Source: Ylistrum balloti
Taxonomy: Eukaryota
Assembly: GCF_031769215.1 (NCBI RefSeq)
Contig: NW_026782491.1
Span: forward strand, 270,882-334,881
Direction of reading: 5' to 3'
DNA: 64,000 bases
Shown: positions 2,752 through 40,329 of the stretch, piece after piece
How positions within the stretch are numbered: the first letter of the stretch is position 1
Layout of the letters: each line of letters begins with the position of its first letter
Made by a program: the position numbers and the translations under genes
The notes under the pieces: model-generated
What the model saw: only the letters and a program-made list of their open reading frames with translations
Told to the model about the DNA's origin: nothing
Database searches by the model: none

Positions 2752-4130
2752 TTTCTACATAGCTCCCATTCCGTACAGGACATAGCTCCAATTTCGAACA
2801 GGACATAGCTCCAATTTCGAACAGGACATAGTTCCCATTTCGAACAGGACATAGTTCCCATTCCGTACAGAACATAGCTCCCATTCCGTACAGTACATAG
2901 TTCCCATTCCGTACAGAACATAGCTCCCATTCCGTACAGTACATAGTTCCCATTCCGTACAGAACATAGCTCCCATTCCGTACAGTACATAGTTCCCATT
3001 CCGTACAGAACATAGCTCCCATTCCGTACAGTACATAGTTCCCATTCCGTACAGAACATAGCTCCCATTCCGTACAGTACATAATTCCCATTCCGTACAG
3101 AACATAGCTCCTATTCCGTACAGTACATAGTTCCCATTCCGCACAGAACATAGTTCCCATTCCTTACGGTGCATAGTTCCCATTCCGTATAGTACATAGC
3201 TCCCATTCCGTACAGAACATAGCTCCTATTCCGTACAGTACATAGTTCCCATTCCGCACAGAACATAGTTCCCATTCCTTACGGTGCATAGTTCCCACTC
3301 CGTACAGTACATAGTTCCCATTCCGTACAGTACATAGTTCCCATTCCGTACAGAACATAGCTCCCATTCCGTACAGTACATAGTTCCCATTCCGTACAGA
3401 ACATAGCTCCCATTCCGTACAGTACATAGTTCCCATTCCGTACAGAACATAGCTCCCATTCCGTACAGTACATAATTCCCATTCCGTACAGAACATAGCT
3501 CCTATTCCGTACAGTACATAGTTCCCATTCCGCACAGAACATAGTTCCCATTCCTTACGGTGCATAGTTCCCATTCCGTATAGTACATAGCTCCCATTCC
3601 GTACAGAACATAGCTCCCGTTCCGTTCAGAACATAGCTCCCATTCCGTACAGTACATAGCTCCCATTCCGTATAGTACATAGCTCCCATTCCTTACAGTA
3701 CATAACTCCCATTCCGTACAGAACATAGCTCCATTCCGTACAGAACATAGCTCCCATTCCGTACAGAACATAGCTCCCATTCCGTACAGCATATAGTTCC
3801 AATTCCGCACAGTACAGAACTCCGTTTCCGTATAGTACATAACTCCCATTCCGGACAGGACATAGCTCCCATTCCATAGAGTACATAACTCCCTTTCCGT
3901 ACAGGATATGGTTCCCATTCCGAACAGGACATAGCTCCCATTCCATAGAGTACATAGCTCCCATTCCATACAGTACATAGCTCCCATTCCGAACAGGACA
4001 TAGCTCCCATTCCATAGAGTACATAACTCCCCTTCCGTACAGGATATGGTTCCCATTCCGAACAGTACATAGCTACCATATAGTACAGTACATAGTTCCC
4101 ATTCCGTACAGTATATAGCTCCCATTCTGT
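2752..4130. repeat. Tandem satellite, 23-bp unit, subfamily A (…CCATTCCGTACAG[A/T]ACATAG[C/T]TC…), ~60 copies. Units alternate GAACATAGCTCCC and GTACATAGTTCCC, giving a 46-bp higher-order dimer.
   Basis: The period was measured from coordinates: the CCATTCC motif recurs at 2881, 2904 and 2927, a spacing of 23 bp. The alternation of unit variants is regular across hundreds of bp. The long minus-strand ORFs predicted here are stop-free repeat artefacts. Confidence 0.9.
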
Positions 4131-11351: not shown

Positions 11352-12154
11352 TTACATTTGCTGAAGACTATTGCCAAATCTGTGAATGAACTCAGTGAAC
11401 TGTTTCCTTGTAAGCATATCCATGTTCAAGGTTCGGACACCAAAGTTGGACAGAATAGTGTCAAGGTCGTCAAGACTGGAATGGAATGTGTCATGCAGCC
11501 TGACCTGTCCTGCCCCAAGACTAGTCACAAGAGGAGTCAGTGGATTGGAAAATGGTTTACCTATCCCTAATTTGTTTGGTGCCATCTGCCTAACAGCAGG
11601 AGGACATACAGTAGTCTTTGTAGCATCTTCTTCCAGACCCTCTGAGGAAGTTGATGAGTGAGACAGAGTAACTTTATGAGGTTTTAATGACTTTATATCC
11701 TTAACTACCCCACACTCCTTCATACCCTTCTCTTTGATTGGCAGTTCTTGGTTTTTATTCTTAGTGTCAAAAGAGTTATCTCCCCTTTCAGTTACCTCCC
11801 CTTTCACACCGACTCCACCCTTAGACTCTGTTGCTTGGTCATTATTCCACTTGATTATTCTCTGGACACATTCTTTGTCTGAAACTGTTTCCTTCTTACA
11901 AACATCCGGGTCAGATTTTAAATGTTTTCCTTTGTCAGTAATTTTCACATGAGCTGAATCCCCTAAAAAATCAAATACTGTGTCCTTGGTAAATTTCATA
12001 AGACACGCTGGGTGATTGGTGTGTTTATCATAACAATGGAGGTGTAGCTGGTGACGTAGCGGTGCAGCATAGAAGCAGTATACACAGCTGAAGCCTACTT
12101 TCAGTGCCTCCATTTTTCTTGGATGTAATGTATATGATGTGGATGATTCTTCAC
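11352..12154 (-). CDS. Second, probably terminal, coding exon of the same zinc-finger gene. It begins after the acceptor tttttctctctctcag (AG at 12156-12155), in phase 1. It carries a further canonical C2H2 finger (FSCVYCFYAAPLRHQLHLHCYDKH). Stop codon at 11352-11354.
   Basis: The phase-1 end of the big exon (…CCA G) plus GT from this exon restores a Gly codon. The frame then continues as …GEESSTSYTLHPRKMEALKVGFSCVYCFY… This is exactly the 253-aa ORF-track frame 11352..12113. The finger motif is C-X2-C-X12-H-X4-H. The polypyrimidine/AG acceptor was seen directly. I found no further in-frame donor before the stop, but I cannot exclude additional 3' exons. Confidence 0.65.
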
Positions 12155-13480
12155 CTGAGAGAGAGAAAAATACTCATTTCATAAATAAAATTGATTATTG
12201 TTATCTTTAGGCTTATTTTTACTTAGATTTAAACTTCAGGTGATGAAACAAATCAATATTCCATTCAAAACCTTCCCCCACTCTTAAAACTTTTTTTAGT
12301 TAAAGCAGAATTTATATGTGATATATACATATGCTTCCTTGAGAGGCAGAGTAGGAAACACGTCTTATGAAATATTGTCAAAATATCAAAATATGACAAC
12401 TGAGATACAAAGTCTAATTAATGTGAATACTCAGTTCTAACTAATGTGCACAGCATACTCAAGATGAAGACACATGTGAAAAACCACATTTCAGTGAAAC
12501 AGAAAAAGAACTTGCTCTAAAATATGTCACCAATGAATCCTGAGTTTAAGATATAGGTCACAAAAAATTCAAATCCCCAAAAAACTTTCTGTATTTTATA
12601 TATCACAGCTGGATCAGACAAGTTAGAATAAGAAAACTTTATATGTTACAGTTTATATTTCATTACCTTGTTTGTTTATGCAAATCTGTACATAAACATT
12701 TGAACTGTCTGTTACAATTTTTTGAAAATAATTAATTTTTCATGCGAGAATTGGAAATACTTTGCCTCTTTAAAGTAAAAAAGGAGGGTTGACCATCGCA
12801 CAAGAGGGGGCTTTCTTTAAAATGTTAAAAGTGCATAACAAAATATTCATTTGGTAGCAAAAATTACATTGAAAATTAATACATCCCTCCAAAAATTATT
12901 TTCTATGCTGAAAACATGCTTTCAATTTAAATGAAAAATTAAGTAAATGAATAAACTAAAAATACACATAATTTTAAAACTGTTGCACTGAATAATTTCT
13001 ATCTTTTAAACACCCATACTCACAACCGATATCAAAATAAAAGGTTATGGAATGAAATGCAAGTAAACTTTTTTGACGGTTTCACAAAATTTCCAAACAT
13101 TTCTATGGAAAAATGAAAAGGGTGACAGAAAATAACATGTTTATCCTCACAATCAGGCTCCAAAAAGGCCATACTCCAAATAAAATCATATGAAACTGAA
13201 TTCTTACACAATGATATATTGTGATTGTACTTTTAGATTGATCACATTCATCAATATTTACAAATTTACTCAACATTTTTCAACCATTATGGAGATAGAT
13301 GGTATATGTAAACAGCAGCTAAATTTGACATTCATCCAGGTTTTTTTCACTCTTGCATTAAACTGTTTTCATCCAAATAGAAAAATTGAAATGCAAGTAA
13401 ATATTCTCCTGTACAATGTCATAACATAGCCTACACTCACAGTCAGCTAGTGAGGAAAATTACCACACCTAGTCACTTAC

Positions 13481-16400
13481 CTGGAAGTACTGTCTCGGAC
13501 ACCTTGACTTTTCCTGTCTTCCCCTTACGTTTGGCAATAAGCTGTTGGAGATTTTCTCGATCTTTGATAGATCCCAGTTTCATTTTCCATGTCTTAGGAA
13601 ACTTCTTCAATTTTGGCATAGTTGGAGACAGATCAGAAAGAACAGAATCTGTTTCAGTGCTACCTTTAGAAGACTTTGGCGTAGAAGAACCCTTAGGTGA
13701 GGAGAGTTCTAAGTTGAGGTCTGGGTCTGGTTTCACCAAGACTGCTGTTCTGTAAACTTTTGGTTGCATTCCTTTGTGATTACGTCGGAAATGCTGGACA
13801 GTGAGAGTTTTTGAGTGTGATTTGTACTTGCATTCTTTACAAACCCAGTTCACAGTGTCATGTGCTAACATCAGATGCTGACCTACACCACGCACTGTTG
13901 AAACATATGAACACTTAGGGCAACGGCCTTTCAACACTTTAGCCCTGTCTTCAGCGACAGGTGTCGTCACTGTACTTGTAATGTCTGGTGCTCCAGGTGA
14001 CTTGGAAGGTGAAGATTCTGAAGACACACTGTAATCATAGATGTCAGCCTTACCCGGAGCACGCTGCTTAGAGGGTGATGTTTGTCCTTGGAGTGACAAG
14101 GTCATAACTTTTCCCTCTATTCCTGGTGTAGTGTCTTCTTCTAGGTCTTTTAACAGACAGAAACTGCGCACTAAACTCACTGTTTTTCCTGGGTGATCCT
14201 CTTTGTAATGTGCAAGACCTTCAAATCTGTTCAGGGTGAAGTATGGACACTCAGTGCATGTGTACTTACACATTTTGTGTACCCAGAAGGCATGAAGTCT
14301 TACCCCATTGATGGACTTGGACTTGTATTCACACAGTGGACACTTAATCAGTTGTGGATCTTTGGCATTCCCCATTACCTTGCCCTGAGATTTAGCCTTG
14401 GCTAACTTTGAATATTTCTGACTATACTTCTTAACATAGTTTGTCATTCTGGCAGACTTTAAAAGGGTAGGTTTCTTCACCGAGTTACTAGAATTTTCAA
14501 CATTTTCTCCATTATCATCCTCTGTGGCACATAGGCAGTTTGCTCTCCCTGGACTGGCATTCATTCTCTTCTTCTTCCCATCTAGAGAACCTTCTTCCAC
14601 TGGACTTTTATCACAACCAGAATGTATAGCCGTTCTTTGTTCAGAAACAGTCCCTTTTGATAATAAATTGAGATTTTTCTTGTAAGGTCCTTTTACTAAA
14701 TCTATACTGTTCTTTTTTACGGAAGCTGGTCTTCCACGTTTGCGTTTCTCAGGACTCTGAGTGGAAGATAGTCCAGTTTCATTAAGATCCCTTTGCTCAT
14801 CCATTGTACTACTTGTACTACTGGTAGAAAGTAGCAAAGAGGAATTATTGGACATGGAACGGCTTTTGTTTTTCTTTGGTGGCATTGTAAGACTTTTTGT
14901 TCGTTTCACATATTTCCTTTTCACACGAGTGCCTGAGGCTGTAATGTTGTCCTGTCGCCTCTTCAGAGCTAGCAGACTATTGTTGATAGTCTCCTCTGTC
15001 AGAATACCAGTTTCACTGGCCACTTTTCTCTGTTTCTCCAAGCCCCCTGTTGCTGGGTCTGTAACACAATCAATCTTTCTCTTTCTTCCCACCTTTTTCC
15101 TCTCTGAGGAACCATCCCTTTCAGAACTTACATTTTCTTCTTCTTTCAAATCTGATTCAATTTTTTTCTTTTTGATTCCCAACAATTTATCTTCTTTTGG
15201 TGTATCATCAGAAATTTCAGATCCTCTCCTTGATTTTGTGACATATTGCTCAGATGATGTTCCTACAAGCTTCATTCTCATGTATTTCCGCTTTAAGGGA
15301 GCAATTCCACGACCCCTTGCAATTGCACGGCCTCTTCTTTTCTGTACTGGAACTGGCCAGGATGGGTCACCTTCAGATCCACTTAATTCACTTTCAGGAA
15401 CAGAATTATCTGTTGAAGACTGGTCAGTTTCCACATCAAAGCTCTTTGAAGTTCCTCGCCTCCTACCTCGTCCCCTACCAGCTTTAAAACCAAACGAAAA
15501 ATTCATGCTGCCTGCTTTGTTTGCTTTTGCCTCTGCAATTTGACCATGTGAAAGTTTTTGCCGGCGCACACCATTGTCTAAATTCAAAATTTCTCTGATG
15601 GTTTTTGTTCTTCCTTTCTTTTTCTTGTCTTCATTTTCAACAAGTTGTCTTGTTGGGTTTGCTTCTGTGACAGGAGGTTTGCTATGTGTGATTGAAGATT
15701 CAATTTTTGGTTGCTCCATGGTGTGCTGATGTACAGACATCTGCGTTGGTATCTGTGTTCGTATTTGAGCAGGTACTTGTATGGGAATCTGCATTGGCAT
15801 TTGCATTGGTACTGGGATAGCTATTCCCCCAAAAGTCTGAATAAGGTTTATACTACTCGTCTGAGTGGCTGTTTGAGCAGACATTACAGGCCCTGGATGA
15901 GGGAGAGCTACCAAAGGAGTAGGGCTTCTTTGACTTATCAATGGTGGATTTACATTAATACTACTGGTACTTATCTGTGGTGCAATTTCAGTATTAGAAC
16001 CAACAGGAAAGGATTCCAGCTCACTCTTTTTCTTTCTGCCTGGTCCTCGTCTTCTTGGCTCAGCAGGACTATTCCCAAAAGTATCATCTGCAGCTCGAAC
16101 AGTGGAGCCATCAGGATAAGTTACATACACCTGTTCTTTTGTTTCGGGAATTCTTATAACTTTTTTCCGTTTCCCTGTCTGCCTCTCTGACTCAGAAGAC
16201 TCATTTGTACCTTTTATGGAAGAATCCAGTTCCTTCTTCTCTATGAATTTCTTTGAAGATGTACTTTTGAAATGTTTGAACATGTCAAATGTGACAAGAG
16301 TACAGTCTTTGTACTTAGAAGGGTTCCGTAATGCTGCTTCTGAAGACTTTACCTTGCCTTCAAGACCAATACACATATCCAGATACTTATCTAAAGCCTT

Positions 16401-17942
16401 GTCCTTTTCATCTTCTGGAGTAAACTCAAAGTTTTCAAATCCACTATGTCTTTTCTTGTTATGAAAATTGAGCGTAGATTTATCTGTGAATTTGCCACCA
16501 CATAAATTACACAGGTAAGGTTTGTATTCAATGTTAATAGAAGCATGTCTACGTAGGTTAGTTTTGATGGGAGTGTTGTACTTACATCCCTTACACTTGT
16601 ACGACCTATAGAGTCCAGTGCCTCGACTGTATCGATCTGGAGTGGACAAATTAGAACAATCAGTGCTGACTGAATCTTCCAATATAGAAGTATCAGATAT
16701 ATTCAGCTCAGGATCATCTTTGCTTTCCTCAATCAACAGTCTGTCGCCACTTTCACATTCGTCCTCAGGACTCGGTGCTGGCACTGTTTTTTCATCTGGT
16801 GTTGAAAGGTTACTTATGTCATTTGTCGGCTTTGTGACTAAAGACAATGGTTCTATTTGTACATCTGGCATTGTTTGTTCTTGACCTGTAGTATCAGACA
16901 GTGTTTTAGGTGAAGTAGCTCTTTGCATTCTACTTTGCTTTGGAGTTTTTACATCATCTTTTAGAATATTATCTTCCTCAGAAGCTTGTGTTTCACAAGC
17001 ATTATCATCTTCATCGTTTACTGATTGTTTTTTCAAAGTTTTTTCGGTTTCTTCATCAGTCTCCATAACTGATGTTTTGTCATTTTTCACTTCCTCTTTA
17101 GTTGGTTTGTTTTTGTCTTCTGTACACAATGTTTCAGATTCAGATTCTATTACTTGATTGACTTCCTCTATTGGACTGCTTCTTTTCTTGTCTTTACAAG
17201 TTCCTTCCTGAGTTACAATGTTTTCTAGTTGCTGCGGTGATGATGTTTTCTCTTCCACATCTGTCAAATTTTCAGTGATTTCTCCTTCTGTACCCTCTTT
17301 CTGCGATGAAATTTTAGATGTTTCCATTTGTGATGTCACTTCCTGTTCACTTTGTGGTGTCACTTCCAATTTTGTTTGCAATGTTCCTTCCTCTGTTTCC
17401 AATGATAATGCCTCTAATGTGTTCTCTTTTTGTACAGATGTCACATCATGTTGTGTTGGTGATGCAACATCGTCTTTTTGTGGTTTTGATGTATCTATCT
17501 GTTCATTACTTGTTCCTTTGTTAATAACTGCTGACATGCTTTGCTTAGAGTTTTGATCATTTGAGTCCTTTTCAGTTTTTGTCACATCAGATGAACAGGG
17601 ACCAGGTTCTTTGAGTTCTTCATTTACATTTTCATCTTCTGTGGTCTTCTCAGGTGTCAATGTAAGTTCACTGCTTTGTTTCAGGTTTTCATCTTTTTTC
17701 TGATCTGATTCAGTTTTTCCCTCCTGGTTTTCATGGTTGTTTTCTGTCTCTTTTTCCTTATCTTCGGACTTTGTTTCTTTACTTTCTGTAATAGCACTGC
17801 AACCTTGGTCAGTTTCAATGTTTTCAGAGGCTGAAGCATCCGAGACAGGTTCAGTCTCATCTTTGGCATCATCAGCTGTCTTTTCGGCGTTGATACTGGA
17901 TGTAGCCATACTATTCAGTGCATCAGCAGGTAGATTGGACAT
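13481..17942 (-). CDS. Large first coding exon of a multi-C2H2 zinc-finger / AT-hook nuclear protein. ATG is at 17942. The exon ends in phase 1 at the donor CCAG|GTAAGT (donor GT at 13480-13479).
   Basis: The exon holds 1487 complete codons with no stop and ends in one extra nucleotide (phase 1). C2H2 fingers were read from the translation: YLCNLCGGKFTDKSTLNFHNKKRH, IKCPLCEYKSKSINGVRLHAFWVH, YTCTECPYFTLNRFEGLAHYKEDH, GRCPKCSYVSTVRGVGQHLMLAH, WVCKECKYKSHSKTLTVQHFRRNH (C-X2-C-X11-12-H-X4-H). AT-hook-like motifs present: KRKRGRPASVKK, RRRGPGRKKK, GRGRGRRRG. Long acidic and Ser/Thr-rich low-complexity tracts. The ORF-track stop at 13473 lies inside the intron, after a perfect GTAAGT donor. An acceptor (ttgttaacttttttag) lies ~22 nt upstream of the ATG, so the 5'UTR is spliced. 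Confidence 0.8.
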
Positions 17943-24840: not shown

Positions 24841-26149
24841 AACATTAAAATAAACTCCAGCGATTGTTGATATTCACATTCGGTGAACTATTATGTTTTG
24901 GTTATAACTTTGCCGCTATGTGGAGATGTCGTTTATATTTTATTATTAATTTCCTTAATTGCGTATAAAATCCTTTACTTCATATCTGATTAATATAAGT
25001 TATCAATTGTACTTTAATCAGAAAACAACTTAACTATTTACTATATATAAACAGTAGTCGGTCTTATTGCCTCCACGACACACGTACATTGATGTTGTGT
25101 TTACCTATAAAATGACACAACTAATTTTTAACTCAATTTTGTCAAAGTTATATCAATGTGTTGGAAAGTTACTATACTTGAGAGTCAGTGACATACATTT
25201 GGAGATATATTTATAAAAATGCATTTATTTCACACTGAAGTTGTCAAAATAATCGTTTTGTTAAAAATTTGGTAAGACTATGAAGAAGATTCATGTGTAA
25301 GTTTCAACTTAAAAAAATGGCACAACTAATTTTCATCTAAATATTTTAAAAGATGATATGTTTGTAACTAAGAAGTGTAAAATTTACTGATCCGAGGTAT
25401 ACATTTTGGAATGTTTATTTACAAAACGATATATTTGTATTTTTCTGAAATGCTGTTATAATTTCTATAGCAAAAAAAGACTTTACGAATGAAATTGACG
25501 AATTTCATATCTTAGATACAAAAAGAAACTGAAGATTAATTTGACCACATGATTATTTAGGCGTATATTGCAGAAAAGTGACATTTTCATGTCCAAAATT
25601 CATTTTGACGTCGCATGGGTTATATAACATATGAGTAATATAACTCGTATATTAACTGTTAGTAATAAAAGTGGAAATCATCTATTTCACCGTTGTTGTA
25701 TATTTGTATGCTGATAGGTTTGATAACAGTCTGAACCACAGGGCATTTATTTTTACGGATATATATGATGAAATTATAAAAACGTTTTGAAAAACTAATA
25801 AAGAAAAAACAATTACTTTTAACAAATTGATTTATAAGTTTCAGTTATGGAAGTTTACAAGGAAACAGTCACTTTTAAAAAAATATTTAAAAAAATTCAC
25901 AAATATAAATGACCTGATATCACATCCTAATTTTTTTTCACAAGTTGTGTAAATATCAAATAATCCTTTTATACCCTGCTCAGTTGTGTAAGTTAACAAA
26001 GCTTCTAACTGTGTTTTTTGTGTGTATATCGTCAAAAATGTCTGATGAAATACTCTTCCGTCTTAAGAAAGAACGTAATTGAAACTACGTCGCAAAGTAA
26101 AACTTTATCATTCATATATTTAGACACGGGGTTCTTTACACGAGTTGTC

Positions 26150-26286
26150 TCCCTTCTCCCGTAACCGGTCATCGATAAGAATAGAAGTAACGTGATTGGT
26201 CAGATGAAAGTTCACACCCCACCTGCCGGCCTGCAGGATCTTGCTCAACATTGAGAAACTCAGAACTGTGCTGACGCAGCTTGAAG
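26150..26286 (+). promoter_or_regulatory. Candidate noncoding first exon and core promoter of the MVP gene. A donor GAACAG|GTAAGC sits at 26287. An inverted CCAAT box (GTGATTGG) lies at ~26201. The flank is CpG-containing.
   Basis: MVP coding exon 1 begins with a spliced 5'UTR (acceptor tttctgttacag at 30703-30714, 8 nt before the ATG), so an upstream noncoding exon must exist. This is the only good plus-strand donor in a CpG-enriched patch between the two divergent genes. The assignment is an inference. Confidence 0.3.
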
Positions 26287-26688
26287 AACAGGTAAGCGTT
26301 AATTTGATTGGTTTTAAACACGTAAATCGAGGTGTTTCAACGAAGCTTATATTGTTTATGAAAGTAAATACATTTCTTGTTAATGACAGTCTGTGATTAT
26401 GTTTGGAAAATCGTTTGTAAAATGTGCAAAGTGCATAGTTTACTTCCGCTTTATCGATCGGACGGACATGTTTATTGACGTAAACTTGGAAACGCATCAA
26501 CATTACAGCAGTAATTATACAATGTCAGCAATTATCGTGAACGTGTTATGATTAATTGTTATTTAACTATTGTGGCAAATTATTAAATGATAGAATTTAT
26601 CACCGGTTGGTGTGGCTGCATTAAAATATAGTTACAGTTACTGCGCACAACGCCAGTGGCATACATACAGGTAATTTTTGTTGCCAAA

Positions 26689-26716
26689 CCTTCCCCCCCC
26701 CCCCCCCCCCCCCAAG
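26689..26716. repeat. C27 homopolymer (G27 on the minus strand)
   Basis: Direct reading of the sequence. Confidence 0.9.
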
Positions 26717-28607
26717 TAGACAAAATATATCAATGACTTGATAGCACAACCATTTAGAATGCTTTGGTACCAACATATGAAATAATTTTATTGTGTATTT
26801 TATCGCGACTCTCGCTTTATTGGTAATCTGAATCGCATGTACATTCTTGTTGGGGTAGTTTTGTTTGACGTCATTAACTCTATCATGGCTATATTTAAAC
26901 ATGGGTATGTCCCAAGTTCGCATTAACTACACACAAACATTTTGAGTGACAGGTAAGCATTTACAGTGATTTCGAAGTAGTTGTGCAATGTCCTAGTGGT
27001 GTATAATACATTTACCTCAGATGTAAAAGGTTGAGTGCTGACAAAGCATGTTCATGTCAGCACAATTTATCCTTTAAAACCAAGTCTTTTTCCAAAATTA
27101 AAGTCAGTACAATATAGGGACATGTGCTGAAGTACAACATGCCTTGATTGAAGACATCACTATCTGCTTTCCCTAGACTTTCTTTAGTCTTACTGTTGGT
27201 GCTGATTATTTTTTGGCTGGTCACTGGTATATTGTAAGTAAGATTTAATTTTCAGTCAATGTCATGTTCATTTTAAATTGTGCAAAAGGACACACTGGTT
27301 TAGAGAGGATTTTAAGACTTAGCAGTTATAGTGTTAATAGTATTGTAGTATTTTAAGGCATTGGGTTATAATGTCCTTATTCTAAACCATGCTCTTCTTC
27401 TCATTCTTAACCACTTTAGAAAGTCTGGCAATGCATATTTCATAGTGTGTAATAACCCAGATACCTGCATATTATTCTTAATGATGATTCAGTCTGAGCT
27501 TTAATGTTGTTTGTGTGATTGTATCTGAAGGAAGAATGAGAGGTAATTGCCAAAAGTGTGTCTAGTGCACTGCTATATGATATGATATATACTCTAGTAA
27601 TGCACAGTTAAATTGTGTTAATTAGATGTCAGGTAATTTATAGCAATTAATCCAGTATAAATAAACATAAGGAAATTATATAATTAATATCCAAACTCCA
27701 GTATATTAGACCCCAGGAAGATATAGCAGCTAATATATTGTCTTTTCAACTGGAAAAGAGGAAACATTTGCTAGAAAATATTTCATTGTATACAAAAAAT
27801 CAATATATTGAAAGTAATTATTACCATGCTTATTACAGTACAATTGTAGATTAGTTTGTATATAAATGGATATTGCTATTTAAAAGCACAAGGAAGTATT
27901 TTATATGTAATTAATAGGGCCTATTTATTTGTACACGGTTGTTATCAATTTCCTTATACACATATTTATGTAATACAAAACATCCTGCATTGACAAGATT
28001 TCAATTCCTTGTGATGTTATCAGATAACAGGTTGTAATTTTCTCAAGTGTAATGTATTTAGGATGAGAAAGTTTTTCCTTATGTAACTTACTTAGCTTTT
28101 ACAGGATAATTTTCTATACTTTTCTTCCTTTCTTTTTTGGTCATTTTTGGGATGTTAATATGTAACATGTCTGAATTCAGATTTTATCAGACTGGTAAAT
28201 GTGGTCGGACAGGTGTGACAGTTTTCATTCACGTAGACTAAGTAGGAAGGTAATTCATGCACTTTATCCAGTGAAATTTGTTACAGCATGTGAAACCAAA
28301 TGCAAATGGAAATTCAAACATTTATGAAAGTTTGACCTGCCCCTATTAACATCTTGAAAAAATGGAGACAGAAAACACTCCTACACATAATGTTTAATTA
28401 AATTTAACTTTAGTTAGAAGTTACTATGCCACAGTAGTTTTTGCTCATGTGGAACTTGAGTTTTTGATTTCATAAGATTTTAATGTCAAATGCTGGAAGT
28501 TTTGTCAGGAGTAAAAAGTTGTGCATTACGAGTGGTAAATGATAAACCCTATCATGTATATTTAACTGATGTATTACAGAAAAGCCCTGGATAAGAATTT
28601 ATGAAAC

Positions 28608-28960
28608 AAAGTGGTCTTAGCCAAATACTGACATTCAGAAAGTGGCCTTAGCCAAATACTGACATTCAGAAAGTGGCCTTAGCCAAATACTGACATTCAG
28701 AGAGTGGCCTTAGCCAAATACTGACATTCAGAGAGTGGCCTTAGCCAAATACTGACATTCAGAGAGTGGCCTTAGCCAAATACTGACATTCAGCGAGTGG
28801 CCTTAGCCAAATACTGACATTCAGAGAGTGGCCTTAGCCAAATACTGACATTCAGAGAGTGGCATTAGCCAAATACTGACATTCAGCGAGTGGCCTTAGC
28901 CAAATACTGACATTCAGAGAGTGGCCTTAGCCAAATACTGACATTCAGAAAGTGGCCTTA
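28608..28960. repeat. Tandem minisatellite, 31-bp unit (AGTGGCCTTAGCCAAATACTGACATTCAGAG), ~11 copies, inside the presumed MVP intron 1
   Basis: GTGGCC recurs at 28611 and 28642, a spacing of 31 bp. Copies are >95% identical, with A/G and C/A variants at fixed positions. Confidence 0.9.
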
Positions 28961-30721
28961 GCCACATGCCAAGTGACCAAATAATCTTTGATTATTTGGA
29001 TTTGCTTATTAATTACATGACAGACAAAATAGCATTTGTTGGCAGAGCAGGGAAAAAAATAAAAAAAACCATTATGTATTGGCCAATCACCAGATAATAT
29101 TTCATCTGATGAAATACATAGTGCCATTTTAAGACAAACCTTTTAATTGAATGTGAATAACATGTTAATGTAAAAAACGTTTTTGTCTACTATTAGGAGA
29201 AAGAGTGTGGTGGTAATACATAACAATAGTGAGATTCATTCTTGCTTCGTCATCAACATTTATTGGCAATCACTTTACCTATCACAGTATCAGGGTAACC
29301 TGTATGTAGTGTACTTAGTATTTAATCTGAATTACCTGAACAAGTTGGCACAAATCCAGGTGTGTTATTTATCTGGATATGAGCTGGCCATGGATATTTA
29401 ATTTCTTCTGTACTTTACGTTCAGCTTACAATAATAGACTACGTAGCTAGTGTGAGCTATATGTTAGCTAATTTAAAAACTTGAAAGAGTTTATTTTTGT
29501 CCTGACGTCACTAGTATGTAATCTTGTCTTTTGGTCTGAATTATTCTGTTTCATATGTTATCTATGTATAAATATAGATTTAAAACGAAAATTTCAAAAC
29601 CAAACCATGTATAATCTTTTAACTGGTGTGAAAACCAATAGTTCACGTGAAATTTGGGTCAGTGATACCTAATTCTGTAGTCTAGAATATATTGATTGCT
29701 GTAGAACCTTGGCCTATTTTACAATAGTGTATGCAGTATTATATCAACAAGACAAGCTTTTATGACTGATCAAACATTTAATTAGTGAGACATTCAGTGA
29801 GATATTGGAACAAGAAAAAACTAGTCAGATATGGTGGTTAAAAAACAGAGAGACTTTTTAGGCATGCTCATAAGGCCCTGCTAGTTAAGCTGGTATTTTC
29901 TCAAGATGTTCTTTGATATGTTTGAAATCATGCTTGACTTTGTTAGAGTTAAAGAAAATCTTTCATATCATAATTAAATGCTATGATCATGTAATATTGT
30001 ATAGTGTACTGGTAAGAAACAGATTTGTAAAGACTGCACAACTATAGGGTGTGACAAATTTCAATATGTTTGCCTGGTGCCAATATGTCTATTTTTGAGG
30101 GAATAATATTTCTGCGAGTATTGAATGTATTAGATGTAATTATGAAACAACAAAAATTAAAGATAATTTTTTTGTGAGTTTTTACACAGGTTTGATGGAT
30201 ACAAGGAAGTGTTTTCAATTTATAAGGCTGATTTACGTTATTTAGATTACAAGAGTTGTATCCCCTTTATTATAGTTGACAACTCAATTTCATAGACACC
30301 AACAATGTACTGAAATAATGACTTCCTCCAATTGTCTTCACCATTAAAATTTCTAAAATTACAAAAAAATTTAACTACTGCAGATTCAACCCGCAATAAA
30401 AGTTATTTTGGCAAAGTGCATAAAACAATGCAGAATATTCATTATTTTGCATGGTAGCCAATCAGATTGTCTATTTGATGTAACTAAGTCCAAGGCATAT
30501 TTTTATAGATGGGATTCTTTTTCAGTATTTGATAAAATTTTTGAGGAATAAAATACTATTACTTTTTTAATAATTTCTATTCGGGTGATAAATAAGAGTG
30601 ATGGTAAATTTTGATCAGTGTTTTTAGTATATACAGTCAGAGAATCCATCATAAAATAAGTTCCAGGTAATCTTACAATAACTGATGAAAATACCATTTC
30701 TGTTACAGATAACTGATCATA

Positions 30722-30864
30722 ATGTCCGTCTCACGTCGTGGAGGGGAGGAGCTGTCCCTATTCAGGATTCCTCCCTACTTTTACCTTCATGTCCTTGACC
30801 AGAATCTTAATGTGACCCGTCTGGAGATTGGTCCCCAGACATACATCCGACAGGATAATGAGAG
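30722..30864 (+). CDS. MVP: MVP (major vault protein) coding exon 1: [47 protein letters not shown](R). It ends in phase 2 at the donor AG|GTGAGA.
   Basis: Translation aligns with the human MVP N-terminus (…[35 protein letters not shown]…). ATG at 30722. The split Arg codon AG|A is completed by exon 2. Confidence 0.9.
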
Positions 30865-31367
30865 GTGAGACTCAGTACTTAGCACACAGGATAAGGGGGT
30901 TATAATGACAATGAACTTCACTGGTCAGGGGTTTAATCAATTAATTTAAGAAATTTGAAGGAAAATTGTTAACTCCTGTAATATTAAATGGTTTGATGTT
31001 GTCTCACAAAATAAATTATGATCTTTATATAGATATCTGATATAAAAGACCATTAAAACATTAAAAAGAAACTCCATTTGAGTGAAAGATTTTCTTTGAT
31101 AAATTAATGACTAATTCGTAATGGAGTCAGTGCTTACTAACCAAAAAAATGATATGAAAAACCCCTGCTTGTTTTTCTTATGTTTATTTCCTTTTTGTGA
31201 CAGTTGTGGCTGATTTTCTAGGGATAATTAAGAAAATTAAGTGACATAGATAAGAATATTAGTTTGGGGTAAATCATTTTAGTCGTGTTTTTGTTCGTTT
31301 TTCTGTAAAACTGTTGAACCTTTGTTATGATTGAACTGGAAGTGTATACGATGATGTTTGTTTACAG

Positions 31368-31563
31368 AGTTGTGTTTGGCCCTGAAAAGATGATCACAGT
31401 GCCTCCAAGGCATTACTGTGTCATCGAGAACCCCCATGTCCGAGACAAGGACAATAAGGTTGTGCTGGACAACAGCGGTCAAGCCAAACTCCTCCATGCT
31501 GACCAGGAGATCCGTTTAGCACAGGACCCTTTCCCTCTATACCCAGGCGAGGTCTTGAAACAG
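31368..31563 (+). CDS. MVP: MVP exon 2: (R)[65 protein letters not shown]
   Basis: Acceptor gtttgtttacag at 31367. Donor CAG|GTAAAA at 31564. It matches the human …[10 protein letters not shown]…[19 protein letters not shown] segment. Frame agrees with the ORF track. Confidence 0.9.
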
Positions 31564-31715
31564 GTAAAAAAAGTCATGATTATACAACTTGTTTAGAGCA
31601 TACTCTGTAATTCAAGTTATGCATGCTTTTATATATTATGTACTGGGGAATAGTGAATGTGAAAAATGTAATGACTATAAGTTTTGTATTTTAATGTAAA
31701 AATTTATTTCTCAAG

Positions 31716-32060
31716 GTTGTGACACCCCTGAAAGTTGTAAATGCCAACTCTGCTCTGCGCTTGAGAGCAATTCTTGACTTTGAAGAAGATATCAAGCGAA
31801 CAGCTGGCGATGAGTGGCTGTTTGAGGGACCCGGGACCTATATCCCACGCAAGGAGGTGGTGATTGATGAGACAATTCGTGCCACAGTAATCCGTCCTAA
31901 TCAGGCTATTCGTCTTCGGGCACGTAAGGAAACAATTGACCGACAGGGCTCTCCCCGAGTGACTGGTGAGGAATGGCTGGTTAAAAAGACTGGAGCTTAT
32001 CTCCCTGGGGCATACGAGGAGGTGGTTGATATTGTCAATGCTTTCGTCCTCACAGACAAG
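31716..32060 (+). CDS. MVP: MVP exon 3: [25 protein letters not shown]…[18 protein letters not shown]…[34 protein letters not shown] (115 codons, phase 0 at both ends)
   Basis: Acceptor tttatttctcaag|. Donor AAG|GTATGA at 32061. It carries the MVP vault-repeat signature [18 protein letters not shown] and the second repeat TGEEWLV. Confidence 0.9.
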
Positions 32061-32571
32061 GTATGATAAGAATTTGTTTAGGACTAAGTAGAATGGGTAG
32101 TTTTTGAACGTAGTCTCTGTTAATAGCTAGTAGACTCTAATGTTGATGTCTATATGAATAGATTGATCTCTACACATATTCTGTTGTTAGGGTGATGGGA
32201 CTACATGGTAAAATTTAATATTAGGATTTATTTTTCAGTGATTCATTTTTTTCACCAGTTCAACCTATTATATAAGAAAATATATTTTTCTATTGACAAA
32301 TGTATTTAACCAGTAGGGAATGAATATCTTCCTGGAAGAATATAAGTTTCCTATATGAAAAGCATCACATCTTCATCAGAAATGCTATAATACAATATAT
32401 TGATGGCATATGTAGAAAAAAATATTTTTTTACTTGTTTTAAAAAAAAAAATTAAATCTGTAATTAATTCAGTTTCTACTGTTGGCGATGTGATATGATA
32501 TTTTGTTGAAGCTGTAATCAACTGTATATTCTAATTCAGTAAATCATAAACTTGTTTTGTTGTATTTATAG

Positions 32572-32697
32572 AAAGCTCTTCACATGAGGTCCCTTAGAAC
32601 ATTTAAGGATGACTTTGGTGTGGTGAGGAAGAATGGAGAGGAATGGCTTATAACGATGACGGAGACAGAAACACATATCCCCAATGTTTACGAGGAG
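32572..32697 (+). CDS. MVP: MVP exon 4: [42 protein letters not shown] (42 codons)
   Basis: Acceptor ttgtatttatag|. Donor GAG|GTCAGT at 32698. It matches human …[42 protein letters not shown]. Confidence 0.85.
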
Positions 32698-32856
32698 GTC
32701 AGTATCAAAATCTTAAACATAATTGTCAGGATGAATCATTGCTTGTTATTATTAGTGTTTTTAGTGAACATTTCCAGAAATGTATAATAAGATTTTTTTT
32801 GTATTTTATATTGTAATATTGATTTGTAAGAAAATTAACTGTTTCTTTGGTAACAG

Positions 32857-32967
32857 GTTGTGGGTGTGGTCTCCATCACGACCTTGACTTCTCGTCAGTA
32901 TTGTGTTATCTTGGATCCTTGTGATGAATCTGGGCGACCACAACTTGGACGCAAGAAGCTGGTCAAG
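32857..32967 (+). CDS. MVP: MVP exon 5: [37 protein letters not shown] (37 codons)
   Basis: Acceptor ctttggtaacag|. Donor AAG|GTTAGT at 32968. It matches human [37 protein letters not shown]. Confidence 0.85.
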
Positions 32968-33424
32968 GTTAGTGGTTAAGGTCATGGACATTGTCTAGTC
33001 ATCATGGGATTTGAACGAAAATAGAATGTAAAATACAATGTATGATAGCTGTGAGGATTTTTTTTTCTGTCAAAAAAATGGCGTTATGATTCCAAATTGT
33101 CTGCAGCATTTAATCATATTTTATAAAACAAATTTTTGTCAAAGTTTTCTGAACCATAACAATCTTAAAACAGGATCATTTTAGACCAAAAAGAATAAAG
33201 GACAAAAAATTGTGTTTGAATTATCAAAGTAAGCTTAAGGTTCAATATACAAACAAAACAAATCTATACAAACAAAACAAATCCTTTAAGTTTATTTATA
33301 TTTGAGCATAGAATTGAAAAAAAAAAGAAAATAAACTTCTTTGTTGAATTTTGATGATTAAGCCAGGACAATTGACATAATTTTTCATTTGTTCATGTTC
33401 TTAAAATTTTGATTGCCAATTTAG

Positions 33425-33700
33425 GGAGAGAAATCCTTCTTCCTTCTTCCTGGTGAGCGACTGGAGCGAGGCATACAGAACATATATGTCCTTGGTGAGG
33501 AGGAAGGTCTTATTCTCAAGGCCACAGAAACATTCAAGGATGAAGATGCCGAAGAAGACCGTCGTCCCGGAGACCGATGGATGATCCGTGGACCCAAGGA
33601 GTATGTACCACCAACTGAGGTAGAGGTTGTGCTCAAGAGACGTGCAATTCCATTAGATGAAAATGAGGGTATCTACGTCAGGGACATCAAATCTGGAAAG
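33425..33700 (+). CDS. MVP: MVP exon 6: [92 protein letters not shown] (92 codons)
   Basis: Acceptor ttgccaatttag|. Donor AAG|GTAATT at 33701. It is almost colinear with human [23 protein letters not shown]…[19 protein letters not shown]. Confidence 0.9.
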
Positions 33701-34153
33701 GTAATTGATCAAAATTGGGAATTTTTCTGCAGGTTTTTGGAGAAGATTAGGGAAAATGTCTTTACACAGATTATGTCTTGTCTGGTAAGCTAACAGATAA
33801 ATATTGGAGGGGCATAAGTGACTGGTGGGAATGATTCATCTGAAGTTGGTATTGAAGAGATATGTATATGTTTCCATTCTCAAGACCATGGGATCCATAT
33901 TTATCAAAGTAGTAATAGCTCAGGACATTCATACTTTGTCAGTTATTGATTTTGAAATCAGAGTTTTTGAAATTAGCTCACACAATTCAGTATGTTTTCT
34001 AGCATGGGCAAAATGTATTATGAAAACTCAAATTTTGGGTCTGATTTTATCAGTCACTTGAATAGAATACTTCAATTTGAAGGAGATTCATTCCTTTTAT
34101 TTGTATTTTAGGAAGTCTGTTAGTAAGAAACTGTTCGATTTGTCTTGTTTTAG

Positions 34154-34735
34154 GTTCGTGCCGTTACAGCTGAGACATATATGTTGAGTCATGATGAGGA
34201 ACTCTGGGAGAAGGAACTTCCTCCTGCAGTGGAGACACTCTTAGCCCAAGGCAAGGATCCTCTGGCTGATCGGGGTACAAGGGGACAAAGTACAGAGTCC
34301 TCAAAGGCTCGTGACAAAACTAGGGTTGTCACCTTCCGTGTACCACACAATGCAGCAGTACAGATTTATGATTACAAGGAGAAGAAAGCAAGGGTTGTGT
34401 TTGGACCAGAACTGGTCATGCTTGGTCCTGATGAACAATTTACACAGCTCAGTCTGTCTGGTGGCAAACCAAAGAAACCTAATTCTATTAAATCTCTCTG
34501 CCTCTTGCTCGGTCCAGACTTTATGACTGATATCATCGTTGTGGAAACAGCTGATCACGCTCGACTCAGCCTCCAGTTATCCTACAATTGGCACTTTGAG
34601 ATCAAGGACAAGTTGCAGGTTTCCGAATCCCACAAGATCTTCAGTGTACCTGATTTTGTTGGTGATGCCTGCAAAGCAATTGCATCCAGGGTGCGAGGAG
34701 CTGTGGCTCAAGTACAGTTTGATGACTTCCACAAG
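34154..34735 (+). CDS. MVP: MVP exon 7: [24 protein letters not shown]…[32 protein letters not shown]…[36 protein letters not shown]…[32 protein letters not shown] (194 codons)
   Basis: Acceptor tcttgttttag|. Donor AAG|GTGATT at 34736. Long blocks are identical to human MVP ([72 protein letters not shown]). Confidence 0.92.
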
Positions 34736-35381
34736 GTGATTATCAAGGACAGTTATTTTTGCTCGGATATAACAATGACTATTATTTGATGAACGTATGA
34801 AGAATTCTAATTTGACAAAGATATCATGGTTCATATTCTTAAATTAACTAACCATTAGAGAACTCATAGAAATGTTAAACTGAATTGAATTGACGACTAC
34901 TGGTAAAGTAAGATCTTCTGTTATGATGCCGACTTACTGTAAAATCATATATATTGATGAGGTTCAGTTATCATGCTTTTCCACAAAATTGTTATTTTGA
35001 GGATATTTGATTTCGTGGATAATCCACGAAATCAGTGAAAATAAATCCCTCACAGAAGTAAATGATTTCACAGTAATGGGCTTTAAAAATGGTCTTATCA
35101 ACAAATTACAATGATTTTACTGCCAATGTTTTAGCAACACTTCATGGGAGAAGTTGTATATTCTAAATTTTCTGGTGTCAAAATATAACATATATATATG
35201 TATAGTAGCTTTTGATAGATGTATATCATTCATTAATCTTTTTATCAATTAAAAATTGTCTTCATGTGAGTAAAACATTGTGTTGTATTTATCATAACTT
35301 GCTTTGATAAGTTAATATTTGTTCCATCTAATGAATGAATTAAGTATCTGTAATTAATTTATTTGTTTCATTTTCTTTTAG

Positions 35382-35837
35382 AACTCGGCCAGGATTATCC
35401 GATCTTCTGTTTTTGGTTTCGATGAGAAAGATAAAGTGCGGGACCAGTTTGTTTTTAATCAGAATTGTTTGATGATTACCAGCATTGATATCCAGTCAGT
35501 AGAACCAGTGGACCAGAGGACTCGAGATGCTCTCCAAAAATCTGTCCAGCTCGCCATCGAGATCACCACCAACTCCCAGGAGGCTACAGCTAGACACGAA
35601 GCTGAACGTCTCGAACAGGAAGCTAAGGGTCGCTTAGAGCGCCAAAAGATCAGTGACGAGGCTGAGGCTGAAAAGTCACGTAAGGAGCTGCTGGAACTGC
35701 AGGCCAACAGTGCAGCTGTGGAAAGTACTGGTCAGGCCAAGGCAGAAGCCCAGTCTCGTGCTGAGGCTTCAAGGATCGAAGGAGAGGCAGCTGTTGAGCA
35801 GGCAAAACTCAAGGCTATGGCTATGAAGATTGAAGCT
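35382..35837 (+). CDS. MVP: MVP exon 8: [13 protein letters not shown]…[57 protein letters not shown]…[21 protein letters not shown] (152 codons). This is the shoulder and start of the cap-helix region.
   Basis: Acceptor cattttcttttag|. Donor GCT|GTAAGT at 35838. It matches human NSARIIRTAVFGF…[56 protein letters not shown]. Confidence 0.92.
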
Positions 35838-36158
35838 GTAAGTGTTTATTGTGGTCAACAACTTGTCTTATCATAACTAAAGCATATAGTTTCACATGTT
35901 ACTTCTTTTGTAAAACAAGACATGATGTACATTCTAGCAGATATACATATTTACAAGCTGTTTTGGGGGAAAAAACACGAAAAAGGTTTACTTTTTTAAA
36001 GGTTCAGTTTTTGTATGCAATTCTTTATAGGTTAACTCATTACAGTCACATTAAGCATAAAATCTTCTTTTGTTTAGCTGCCTATAGCGAACAAAATTAT
36101 TCATAGATCAAGTAAATTTCATGCCAATCGCATTCACTTCTGTGTTTGTAATTTGTAG

Positions 36159-36503
36159 GAGTCTGATCTGGAAAGACTGACCAGTGCCAGGGAAGCAGAA
36201 TTGAAATATATTCGGGAGCAGAATGACATGGAACTCAACAAATCCAAGGAAATGTCCCTCATCGAAACTGAGAAGTTCAAGAACATGGTGGATGCTATCG
36301 GAGCTAGCACACTCCAGTCCATTGCAGTCTCTGGTCCAGAGATGCAGGTCAAGATGTTGACCGCTCTAGGGTTGAAGTCTACACTCATTACAGATGGCAG
36401 CAGTCCAATCAACCTTTTCAATACTGCCAACGGACTTGTTGGTGGCCAGCTGCTTCCTGCTAAAAGGCGTCATGCTCCAGGTGACTCTGATGAGGAGGAT
36501 TAA
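36159..36503 (+). CDS. MVP: MVP exon 9 (terminal): [21 protein letters not shown]…[72 protein letters not shown]. The stop TAA is at 36501-36503.
   Basis: Acceptor tgtaatttgtag|. The C-terminal coiled-coil/cap region matches human …[50 protein letters not shown]. The nine exons sum to 2580 nt, giving 859 aa. Poly(A) signal candidates downstream are ATTAAA at ~36771 and AATAAA at ~37633. Confidence 0.92.
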   Translation, partial: [114 protein letters not shown]

Positions 36504-39500
36504 AGGGCAGATAACTAAAAGAGTACTCTCCCTTTACACTGTTTGTTTTCTTGGCCAATTGTTATTGGTCATATTTCTGTTACACACTGCAATCAAAATT
36601 TGATGGTCGGATGAAACACATCTTCTGGTCATTGAAAACAAATTATTTATTATGGACAGACATTTCTACCCCAGACAACTTGGACCAAAATGAGAATGAG
36701 GTTTTAAAGGCATGGTTATGTGTTATAAGATATTTTGTAATAGTGAAGTTTCTGTGCAAGATTTCAGATTAAATTATCATAACCAAGTATGGTACATAAC
36801 AACCAATTAATGTTTAATTGACCAATATATATTCAATTGTGGTTAAAAAGTTAAATGCTTGTTATTTAGCAAAGAATTTTTTTGTACTTGTTCATGCATA
36901 ATTCATTGTATTCTGCCTTAAATCTTGTTTAAGAAAAAAAGTATCTCTTCCATTGCATGCAAATTGGTAAATTTCAACTCTGCATTTAAAACTTTCATTA
37001 TGAACATGACATCTGTGTTATTTTATTATATTATCATTCATATTTTTCATCTAGATTTCTATCTAAGTGTCAACTGGTATATTAAAGTTTATACAAGTGC
37101 AATTACAACTGTGAGATGAAAGCATGTGTGATGACCTAGACTTTAATTTGTATTCTTTGTTTGGACAAATGTGTTTGAAATAGATGCTTACACTTCAGCT
37201 GCACAACTTCAACATAAGTTGACAAACCACGAAAAAAACTAATATGATGTACACAGCAATATGAAATTCACCAATAGTCAACTCTTGTCATGTTTGTGCA
37301 GCTGTATAGTGAAATAGTGATAACCTAGTGTTTAATTGCATTTTCATTAATTAAGAAAAAAGTGCTTGGTACAGAACAAATATACATACCAAGTACTAGC
37401 TGGATTTTAAGGAGTCAGACTGCTTTCACATTGATATACTGTATTAATATTGTATGAATTTGTTTGGAGTATATTGTGAGTAGTGTCTGTAAAGACAGTG
37501 CTCACAGGTGTTTGTTGTTTTTTGTGGGTTGAAGTTATTTCTGTTTTATAACTAATTTTGTACCAATTTAGACTATTGTCCTTTCTCTGTGATAGACTCA
37601 GTGCACCTCTTTCTAACATAATATATATTCTAATAAAATATATATGTATAGTGACAATATTTAATTATGCAACATGTCTGTTTACAATCCGACGGCGAGT
37701 GAAATGGATATCATGTTGACAAATAGAATTTTGTTTTTGTGAATCTTATTAAAAACTTATATGAAATACCTTCTTCATTGTTTTTATAGAATGCCATTTG
37801 AAGATGGTAGTAGTTTTTTTCAGATTGTCTATTGTTTGTTGTCTTACTATTTGATGACAGATATTCAAGGCTTTTTTACTGGTTTCAGATGGGGCATTTT
37901 TACCTTATTTTAGAAGAAAATTTGTGAATTCGCAAGGAAATTTCGAATTTGGAGAATTTAGCTTGAATGTGGAGTAATTTCAACTGGGAATGAGGCCCAT
38001 TGTCAGCCCAAAAAGGATCTCAAAAAGTCCTAATATTTGTCCAAAAACTGTTTTGTACACAGGATTCCTTTGACTCCTGAAGAATAATGTCTACATTCCT
38101 ATCTTGTAAAATTTTACTAAACATCACAAGACAGGTTTATTTTTAACTTCTGATGGTAGTGAAGATTTGCCATGAAAAAAACCCCGCTGACATTGGAATA
38201 CAAATCAAATTTCAACCTCAGCTGTCATTTGAATAAAGGAAACTAAGTCGGTACTTATCCCTAAATGATAGGTCTAATGGGCCTGAATTGTTCACCTGTT
38301 CTGCAGCTTGAAAATGGTACTGTAAACCATATGATTCATGCAAGGTGCAATTTTACATACGTGAGTCATTCACCTGCGTAAAATTTACCCCATGTGGATG
38401 ATTTTGTGATTTACCTGTGTATGGTACATGTACTTGTGAAACGGGTATGTAAAATGAACATCGTAATTTATTAAAGATATGGATATCAAACCGCTGTGTA
38501 ACTGATATACCACAACTACACCCACTTATACTCTTATCAATATACATGTTATTATGAACACTATACAAATAAACATTGTGATAAGATCACTGAAGCTGAT
38601 AAATGAAAGTTAATAACCTGTGTACTCCCAAGTTTGTGTAGACAAAGTAACATCAGACAAAACATTTTATTAACATTATCATGGATGGTATAATAACAGG
38701 GTATTATAATTAGACACTAACTGATATGAAAGATGTTACACGATAGATATGGTCTATATATTTACCAGTGTGAATTGACCATATTAAACAATCCAGTCAC
38801 ACATGGGAAAACAACACGTCCATCAGAACCATGCAGATATACTTGAAACAAATACCCATGATTTGTGTTCCTGTTTTGTTGAAATCAAGAAAGCATCATG
38901 ATGGAGACATGGCCATAGGTCAGTTATAGAAGTCTGTGATGTACAGTGTGCAGATTGCCTGTTGAAATTGGGAAATCTATTCACACTTACAGTACTTAGT
39001 TCAAGAACTTCATTTCTGCACACTTGAAAGCCTGGTTCCCCAGCATACTATAGTATCACACCAATACCATGACCAAGGGCCTATTGTATCTTGAAAAGAA
39101 GAAGTTTGAACTTCTTAACACATTTGACCTCTGTGTCCTTGAAAAGTCAAGGTCATTTTTTTTAATCAACTTGGAAGCTCTTCACTCCAGTATGCTTATG
39201 GCTTAGTGTCACAACCCTTGGCTTCTTTTTTTATGCAGTTGTTTAAAAGATTTTGACCCATTTGAGTAGGTCAAGGTTATTCATATAAACAAACTTGTAA
39301 GCTCTTTATCTCCATCTTCTGCTGACTCATAGTCAGGACATTAGGGCCTGTTGGTTATTGAAAAGTTTTGTGAAGGGAAAAATTGACACAACAGACAACT
39401 CATCTTGGGAGAGGTTATATTTGCTGTTTGAGCTGATGAGCTAACAATCAGTTAAGGCTTCCATTATTCAACAGGAAATCATAATAAAAATATGTATTCA

Positions 39501-40329
39501 CCATTCAAACTCAACAGGTTTTAAACATACAAGATGACAAAAAACGTTTGAAATTCAGTCTTTATTTGTGAAAAATTATATTTGACATCAAATACCACTG
39601 CATGACCTATATTATCGTGACTATAACAATGAAAACAAAAATAATGGTATATGAACTGTGTTTGTATGGGAATGATGTAGTATACAAGGTTAGAGTTAGA
39701 ATATGTCGGTAAGAGAGGATTGGGAAACAAGCTTGGGATGAATTAATTGATTGGTTAAAGCTTTTCTGATAAAAAATTCCAAATGTGAAAATTTTTACGT
39801 TATTGGCATATGTAGTTTAATATATAAATAACCAACGATGACAGATCAGAACTTTGTACATCACTTTTGACCTGGTAAGGTGTACAAGTACAGTTGGGTA
39901 TCTGGATAATCAAGCTGTGGTGACCGATCTTCTGAGCTATAAAACTTCAGTTAAGTAAATTTTATGATTAATGAATTATATAAGAAGATAGGAATGTGGC
40001 AAATATTAATATATGTGGGACCAGAATGCATTCAAGCTTCATTTCAGAAAATAATTTTACAACTGTTAGAATAAATAGCAGTAACCACATGTTTGATCCC
40101 CGATTGAAACGGTGGATCACATAATACTGGTTCTATTACATATCTAATAGAAATTCTCTCTTAAAATATCTAAGGTAGGTATAATTTGCACTTCCAAATA
40201 GAATTTATTATTGTTTGGTTCCTTTTTCTCATTAAGGCCTCTCTGCATTTAGATTTTATATTGATTATCAGGAGGACTGAAAAATATTCATACTGTGCTT
40301 TGTGAAGACAGGACCTTTCATTCATTAAA

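Follow-up and report, generated by a model that had tools for sequence, protein, structure and literature searches.

The stretch of the Ylistrum balloti genome analysed here (64,000 nt of contig NW_026782491.1, referred to as the window) contains on its plus strand a gene for the major vault protein (MVP), accompanied by tandem repeats and by parts of other putative genes. The coding model of the MVP gene was built by splicing nine proposed exons from the window sequence, for which the region 30400-36900 was read. The resulting coding sequence (CDS) has 2,580 nt, extends from 30722 to 36503, and encodes 859 amino acids (aa) plus a stop codon; its start codon is the ATG at 30722-30724 and its stop codon the TAA at 36501-36503. 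All the internal exon borders are of the AG...GT type and their phases are compatible, the coding junctions being situated at aa 48, 113, 228, 270, 307, 399, 593 and 745. The introns carry good polypyrimidine tracts and donors of the AG/GTAAGT type. As an independent check, exact protein-to-genome threading was carried out blind to the earlier exon coordinates. The algorithm reproduced the identical nine coding exons, and therefore the eight junctions quoted in the original prediction, with their phase-compatible splice sites, are exact in every case.

The conceptual protein is identical (100% over 859 residues) to the RefSeq entry XP_060079696.1, 'major vault protein-like [Ylistrum balloti]'. 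This residue-for-residue match indicates that the gene was already annotated with exactly the same coding model. Splicing, threading and RefSeq identity thus agree on what had been proposed from the sequence alone, namely a complete MVP gene with nine coding exons and a product of 859 aa. Comparison of the protein with Pfam detected Vault four times (E = 7e-64), Vault_2 twice, Vault_3, Vault_4 and MVP_shoulder, all of them far over the curated cut-offs. The MVP_shoulder match (PF11978) covers aa 519-637 with E = 6.7e-53 and comprises the full profile (1-118 of 118). The nine vault repeats, R1 to R9, are all present: eight of them are Pfam repeat matches, and R1, which has no Pfam match, aligns gap-free to rat R1. 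In a sequence comparison with the PDB, the top matches were all 'Major vault protein' with E = 0 (2qzv, 4hl8/4v60 and others). The alignments pair residues 10-840 of the scallop protein with residues 4-850 of the rat chain 4HL8/4V60, and residues 12-856 with residues 6-868 of the MVP chain 11dr, which has 893 residues.

Rat MVP, whose sequence was recovered from the PDB-chain alignment, was used for a closer comparison by BLASTP. The two proteins share 555 of 847 positions (66%), and 16 gap positions are distributed among four insertions or deletions (indels). Three of these comprise 2 aa each and fall in R3, in R7 and at rat 444-445, and the fourth comprises 10 aa (rat 611-620). The scallop protein lacks these 10 residues of the shoulder loop and the three 2-aa stretches. 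In the rat protein the repeats occupy residues 1-519, the shoulder 520-646 and the cap-helix 647-802, followed by the cap-ring (PMC3595041). Transferred through the alignment, these borders give repeats at 1-519, shoulder at 520-636, cap-helix at 637-792 and cap-ring at 793 to about 835 in the scallop protein, which ends in an acidic tail of 24 residues after the cap-ring. The cap-helix (637-792) aligns gap-free to rat 647-802, and so does the stretch 793-840 to rat 803-850. Both proteins (the rat structures being PDB 4V60/4HL8/2QZV) are colinear from R1 to the cap-ring, with a shoulder starting at Pro520 in each, while the short acidic C-terminal tail of the scallop protein differs from that of rat. 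Segments 429-448, 608-620 and 846-861 are disordered in the rat crystal, and the indels at rat 444-445 and 611-620 fall within these disordered loops (PMC3595041). No indel coincides with an exon junction and none removes a repeat. The original prediction had described the product as colinear with MVP without gaps; colinearity holds, with E = 0, whereas the absence of gaps does not, given the four short indels (2, 2, 2 and 10 aa) with respect to rat. The same alignment bears on the possible loss of a vault repeat, since it contains no repeat-sized gap and no repeat is missing. At the waist of the rat vault, the interface between both halves involves Ile36, Arg37, Asp39 and Arg42 (PMC2752026), and the corresponding scallop residues (I42, R43, D45 and R48) are identical.

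Transcript evidence comes from three RNA-seq assembly contigs of Argopecten irradians (L004-L006, 3.0-3.9 kb). These contigs hold an uninterrupted open reading frame (ORF) of 860 aa and must therefore correspond to spliced mRNAs. In the window they map as nine coding blocks, each delimited by the proposed exon borders, and in the A. irradians genome the blocks end at the equivalent junctions. Two of them, L005 and L006, begin with an exon of 87 to 91 nt; in the genome of A. irradians, 3.4 kb separate this exon from the downstream ATG exon. This first mRNA exon maps to positions 26205-26295 of the window with 83% identity, and the block 26017-26549 around it is conserved in Pecten and Mizuhopecten. 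The 5' noncoding exon, which the original prediction had proposed to locate by mapping RNA-seq reads, can thus be placed at approximately 26198-26291 by homology to the Argopecten mRNA. An inverted CCAAT box (ATTGG) is found at 26195 and, in Ylistrum as in A. irradians, borders the transcribed stretch; transcription would start at or upstream of 26198. The acceptor of exon 2, at 30709 and 13 nt before the ATG, reads ttctgttacag/ATAACTG (ttctgttacag/ATAACTGATCATAATG) and matches the A. irradians mRNA junction ...GAACAG/ATAATCAATCAAAATG, the layout being the same in that species.

At the other end of the gene, the last stretch of contig L004, which carries the poly(A) tail (…CCTATTAAACTTGATACAAAAAAA), aligns to positions 37494-37753 of the window. 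This contig stops just past an ATTAAA motif, which recurs in the window at 37748, and conservation in Pecten and Mizuhopecten extends over the block 37066-37787. Taken together, the putative placements of the 5' noncoding exon and of the 3' untranslated region (UTR), deduced from sequence comparison, would delimit a transcription unit of 11.6 kb with 10 exons, from about 26198 to about 37770. Thus, the compact gene of 5.8 kb initially described corresponds to the span from ATG to stop, but not to the transcription unit, which would reach approximately 11.6 kb when the UTRs are included. When the genome and the mRNA of A. irradians are compared, an apparent 'intron' shows up in the 3' UTR. It lies between 32-nt direct repeats and lacks GT/AG borders, and was rejected as a splice. 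In contigs L004 and L005, about 730 bp of the 3' UTR present in the genome are missing (positions 16899-17626 of L003, in the A. irradians genome), a difference that is due to an indel polymorphism or to assembly collapse. On the other hand, a tandem repeat with 11.5 copies of a 31-bp unit (AGTGGCCTTAGCCAAATACTGACATTCAGAG; 97% matching copies) is located at 28610-28964, inside the putative 5' UTR intron.

The length of this first intron (4.4 kb) is such that it could hold alternative first exons. Several MVP isoforms have been annotated in other animals (for instance, X2-X7 in Branchiostoma and X5 in Littorina), and A. irradians has two RefSeq accessions. The gene could accordingly be MVP but the nine-exon CDS only one of several isoforms, alternative (5') exons being able to alter the protein. 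However, both A. irradians accessions carry the same protein sequence, the three A. irradians mRNA contigs likewise code for a single protein of 860 aa, and no MVP-like coding potential was found in the introns of the gene. There is no indication of a further coding exon. For these reasons the existence of further protein isoforms appears very unlikely.

Comparison with other scallops informs on whether the gene is at work. The 90% cluster of XP_060079696.1 has as other members the MVPs of A. irradians, Pecten maximus and Mizuhopecten yessoensis, which show 25-47 differing positions. Identical residues amount to 834 in P. maximus (XP_033747539, 861 aa), 826 in A. irradians (XP_069136058, 860 aa) and 812 in M. 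yessoensis (XP_021364753, 859 aa). Threading on these three loci reproduces their RefSeq proteins exactly. The three species have the same nine coding exons and the same eight intron positions and phases as Ylistrum, with spans from ATG to stop of 5.5-6.8 kb in the four genera; they differ from Ylistrum in intron lengths and, slightly, in the C-terminal tail. Only Ylistrum shows an in-frame deletion of 2 aa, which follows aa 139 in the R3 loop. The ratio of nonsynonymous to synonymous substitutions (dN/dS, Nei-Gojobori method) with respect to Pecten, Mizuhopecten and Argopecten is 0.024-0.029, with dS values of 0.8-1.07, indicating very strong purifying selection. In addition, an alignment of 117 non-scallop animal MVPs has 426 columns that are conserved in at least 95% of the sequences, and the Ylistrum protein agrees with the consensus in 424 of them. 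The two exceptions are A405, common to all four scallops, and T371, a position at which the Argopecten alignment is ambiguous. Colinearity with the Pecten and Mizuhopecten loci extends to the flanks of the gene, conserved blocks being present upstream (22.3-22.7, 26.0-26.5 and 26.8-26.9 kb) and downstream (37.1-37.8, 39.5, 40.9 and 41.9 kb).

These data bear directly on the possibility that the locus is not a working MVP gene but an intact-looking copy that is silent or recently duplicated, that is, an unprocessed pseudogene or a redundant paralogue. The available transcripts are those of another genus, and fragments or haplotigs do occur in scallop assemblies: for instance, Mizuhopecten has an extra record, a partial 'MVP-like' protein of 230 aa on a 4.5-kb contig. 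However, a silent copy would not be expected to combine a complete ORF with a dN/dS of about 0.025 over such synonymous distances and with nearly all of the near-invariant residues. Orthologous introns have been kept, conservation extends to the promoter/5' exon and to the 3' UTR, and both Pecten and Mizuhopecten have a single locus with colinear flanks, no second MVP-like sequence being present elsewhere in the 64-kb window. A silent or redundant copy is therefore extremely improbable.

We conclude that the locus is almost certainly an intact, ordinary and strongly conserved working MVP gene, with 10 exons, nine of them coding, and a product of 859 aa. Several observations weigh against this conclusion, but none of them is in conflict with it. 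The mRNA support comes from another genus, Argopecten; XP_060079696.1 is itself a model (XP_) entry; and the placement of the 5' exon and of the poly(A) site is by homology only. Furthermore, neither vault RNA nor any other Rfam family matches the window at gathering score, and no vault RNA was found at E ≤ 1 around the gene, where permissive Rfam scans covered positions 25500-37900 and 37800-42500. The other minor components of the vault, TEP1 and PARP4 (vPARP), are likewise absent from the window. The exons, the first intron and the 3' UTR are listed in Table 1.

Table 1. Exons and untranslated parts of the Y. balloti MVP gene (positions in the window; noncoding limits are those suggested by homology to A. 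irradians mRNA).
Feature	Position	Strand	Description
Putative 5' noncoding exon 1	26198..26291	+	A. irradians mRNA homology; donor CAG/GTAAGC after 26291
Putative 5' UTR intron	26292..30708	+	4,417 nt; borders from A. irradians mRNA alignment
Exon 2	30709..30864	+	13 nt of 5' UTR (ATAACTGATCATA) and coding exon 1; aa 1-48, phase-2 split
Coding exon 2	31368..31563	+	196 nt; aa 48-113
Coding exon 3	31716..32060	+	345 nt; aa 114-228; 6 nt shorter than in other scallops
Coding exon 4	32572..32697	+	126 nt; aa 229-270
Coding exon 5	32857..32967	+	111 nt; aa 271-307
Coding exon 6	33425..33700	+	276 nt; aa 308-399; equals two Mytilus exons (126+150 nt)
Coding exon 7	34154..34735	+	582 nt; aa 400-593; R8-R9 and beginning of the shoulder; equals two Mytilus exons
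Coding exon 8	35382..35837	+	456 nt; aa 594-745; rest of the shoulder and greater part of the cap-helix; equals Mytilus 212+244 nt
Coding exon 9, CDS part	36159..36503	+	345 nt; aa 746-859 and TAA; remainder of the cap-helix, then cap-ring and acidic C-terminal tail
Putative 3' UTR	36504..37770	+	about 1.27 kb; end approximate, shortly past ATTAAA at 37748-37753

The compactness of the coding part of the gene can be related to its intron history. The human MVP gene is far larger, with about 27 kb and 15 exons. For a broader comparison, MVPs were threaded on the loci of Mytilus californianus, Lottia gigantea, Saccoglossus kowalevskii and Nematostella vectensis, whose proteins are 76-83% identical to that of the scallop. 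Their genes have 12, 13, 13 and 17 coding exons, respectively, and span 7.7-10.1 kb from ATG to stop. Each of the eight scallop introns is common, in position and phase, to at least two of these four species, and hence none of them is new. Conversely, the four scallop genera lack introns at aa 349 (phase 0), 479 (phase 2) and 664 (phase 2), all of which are kept in Mytilus, Lottia and Saccoglossus, and two of them also in Nematostella. Each of the scallop exons 6, 7 and 8 represents an exact fusion of two mussel exons (126+150, 242+343 and 212+244 nt, respectively). Since the lost introns alternate with retained ones (307, 399, 593 and 745), three independent losses fit better than a single cDNA-mediated conversion. 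It is therefore very likely that the scallop lineage precisely lost three ancestral MVP introns, more probably in independent events, and that this loss contributes to the compactness of the gene. The scallop gene is compact partly due to lineage-specific intron loss and partly due to the short introns of these invertebrate genes (150-650 nt). Nothing in the data points to a new function or to a new kind of element.

With respect to the function of the product, a mechanism can be carried over from the rat and human vault structures, the assembly of the scallop protein being suggested by its identity to rat MVP. By analogy, 78 copies of MVP would self-assemble into the hollow, barrel-shaped shell of the vault, composed of two 39-mer halves. 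The vault repeats would form the wall of the barrel, while oligomerisation would be driven by the coiled coils, or bundle, of the cap-helix. The R1 domains would join both halves at the waist by means of a conserved pH-sensitive Asp/Arg interface, which has been proposed to open at low pH. To our knowledge, the cellular role of vaults is unsettled in every organism. Few animal proteins are as conserved and as well annotated as MVP, and a further intact orthologue gives no new handle on vault function. The fact that a nine-exon animal gene reconstructed from raw sequence equals the RefSeq model residue for residue has mainly quality-control value. The coding model is already known from RefSeq, and the additions made here, of modest value, are the three intron losses of pectinids and the UTR exons, including suggested positions for the poly(A) site, the 5' noncoding exon and the promoter region.

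Other candidates for non-coding RNAs in or near the gene were also considered. The permissive Rfam scans gave three hits resembling small nucleolar RNAs, which are below threshold (E 0.25-0.75, with bit scores of about half the gathering score) and were treated as chance matches. No tRNA was detected by ARAGORN. Downstream of the MVP gene, the block 39523-39675 shares 93.5% identity with Pecten along 93 nt and is also present in Mizuhopecten, a conservation above that of the MVP exons. It has no Rfam match over threshold. A vault RNA or another non-coding RNA was considered for this block and rejected, since on the minus strand it shows a 3' end with AATAAA; it is more probably the end of the 3' UTR of a convergent neighbouring gene.

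Upstream of the MVP gene and on the opposite strand, an uninterrupted ORF of 1,489 aa with low-complexity stretches rich in Ser, Glu and Lys is located at 13473-17942 (minus strand), the stretch 11352-12113 (minus strand) being grouped with it. This ORF shows weak, sub-threshold matches to C2H2/C2HC zinc fingers (ZNF462/ZNF512-like), and is probably a gene for a large zinc-finger protein. Closer to the beginning of the window there is a satellite of 3.7 kb (2757-6505) with a basic unit of 23 bp (ACATAGTTCCCATTCCGTACAGG) and higher-order periods of 46 and 69, which yields a stack of spurious long ORFs on the minus strand.

On the other side of the MVP gene, the segments 47427-47669, 48856-49191 and 55512-55892, all on the minus strand, are exons of an RNF34/rififylin-like E3 ligase gene. 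They include a C-terminal exon for the RING domain, closed by a stop codon, and give matches to the RNF34L-like third domain (E = 5e-18) and to the RNF34/RFFL SAP domain (E = 6e-12). The region 49563-52468 (plus strand) contains an envelope ORF similar to baculovirus F proteins (50617-51696; Pfam PF12259, E = 3e-15). The two ORFs that flank it have no Pfam family match, and at least one of them is in a different frame; no ORF for pol or reverse transcriptase was seen beside the envelope ORF. This region looks like a decayed env remnant of the errantivirus type within an intron of the RNF34-like gene. Finally, a tandem repeat composed of 32 copies of a 28-bp unit (GTTTGTGGTGTGAGACCACCAGTACAGG; 91% matches) extends from 56890 to 57795 and is another source of spurious ORFs.

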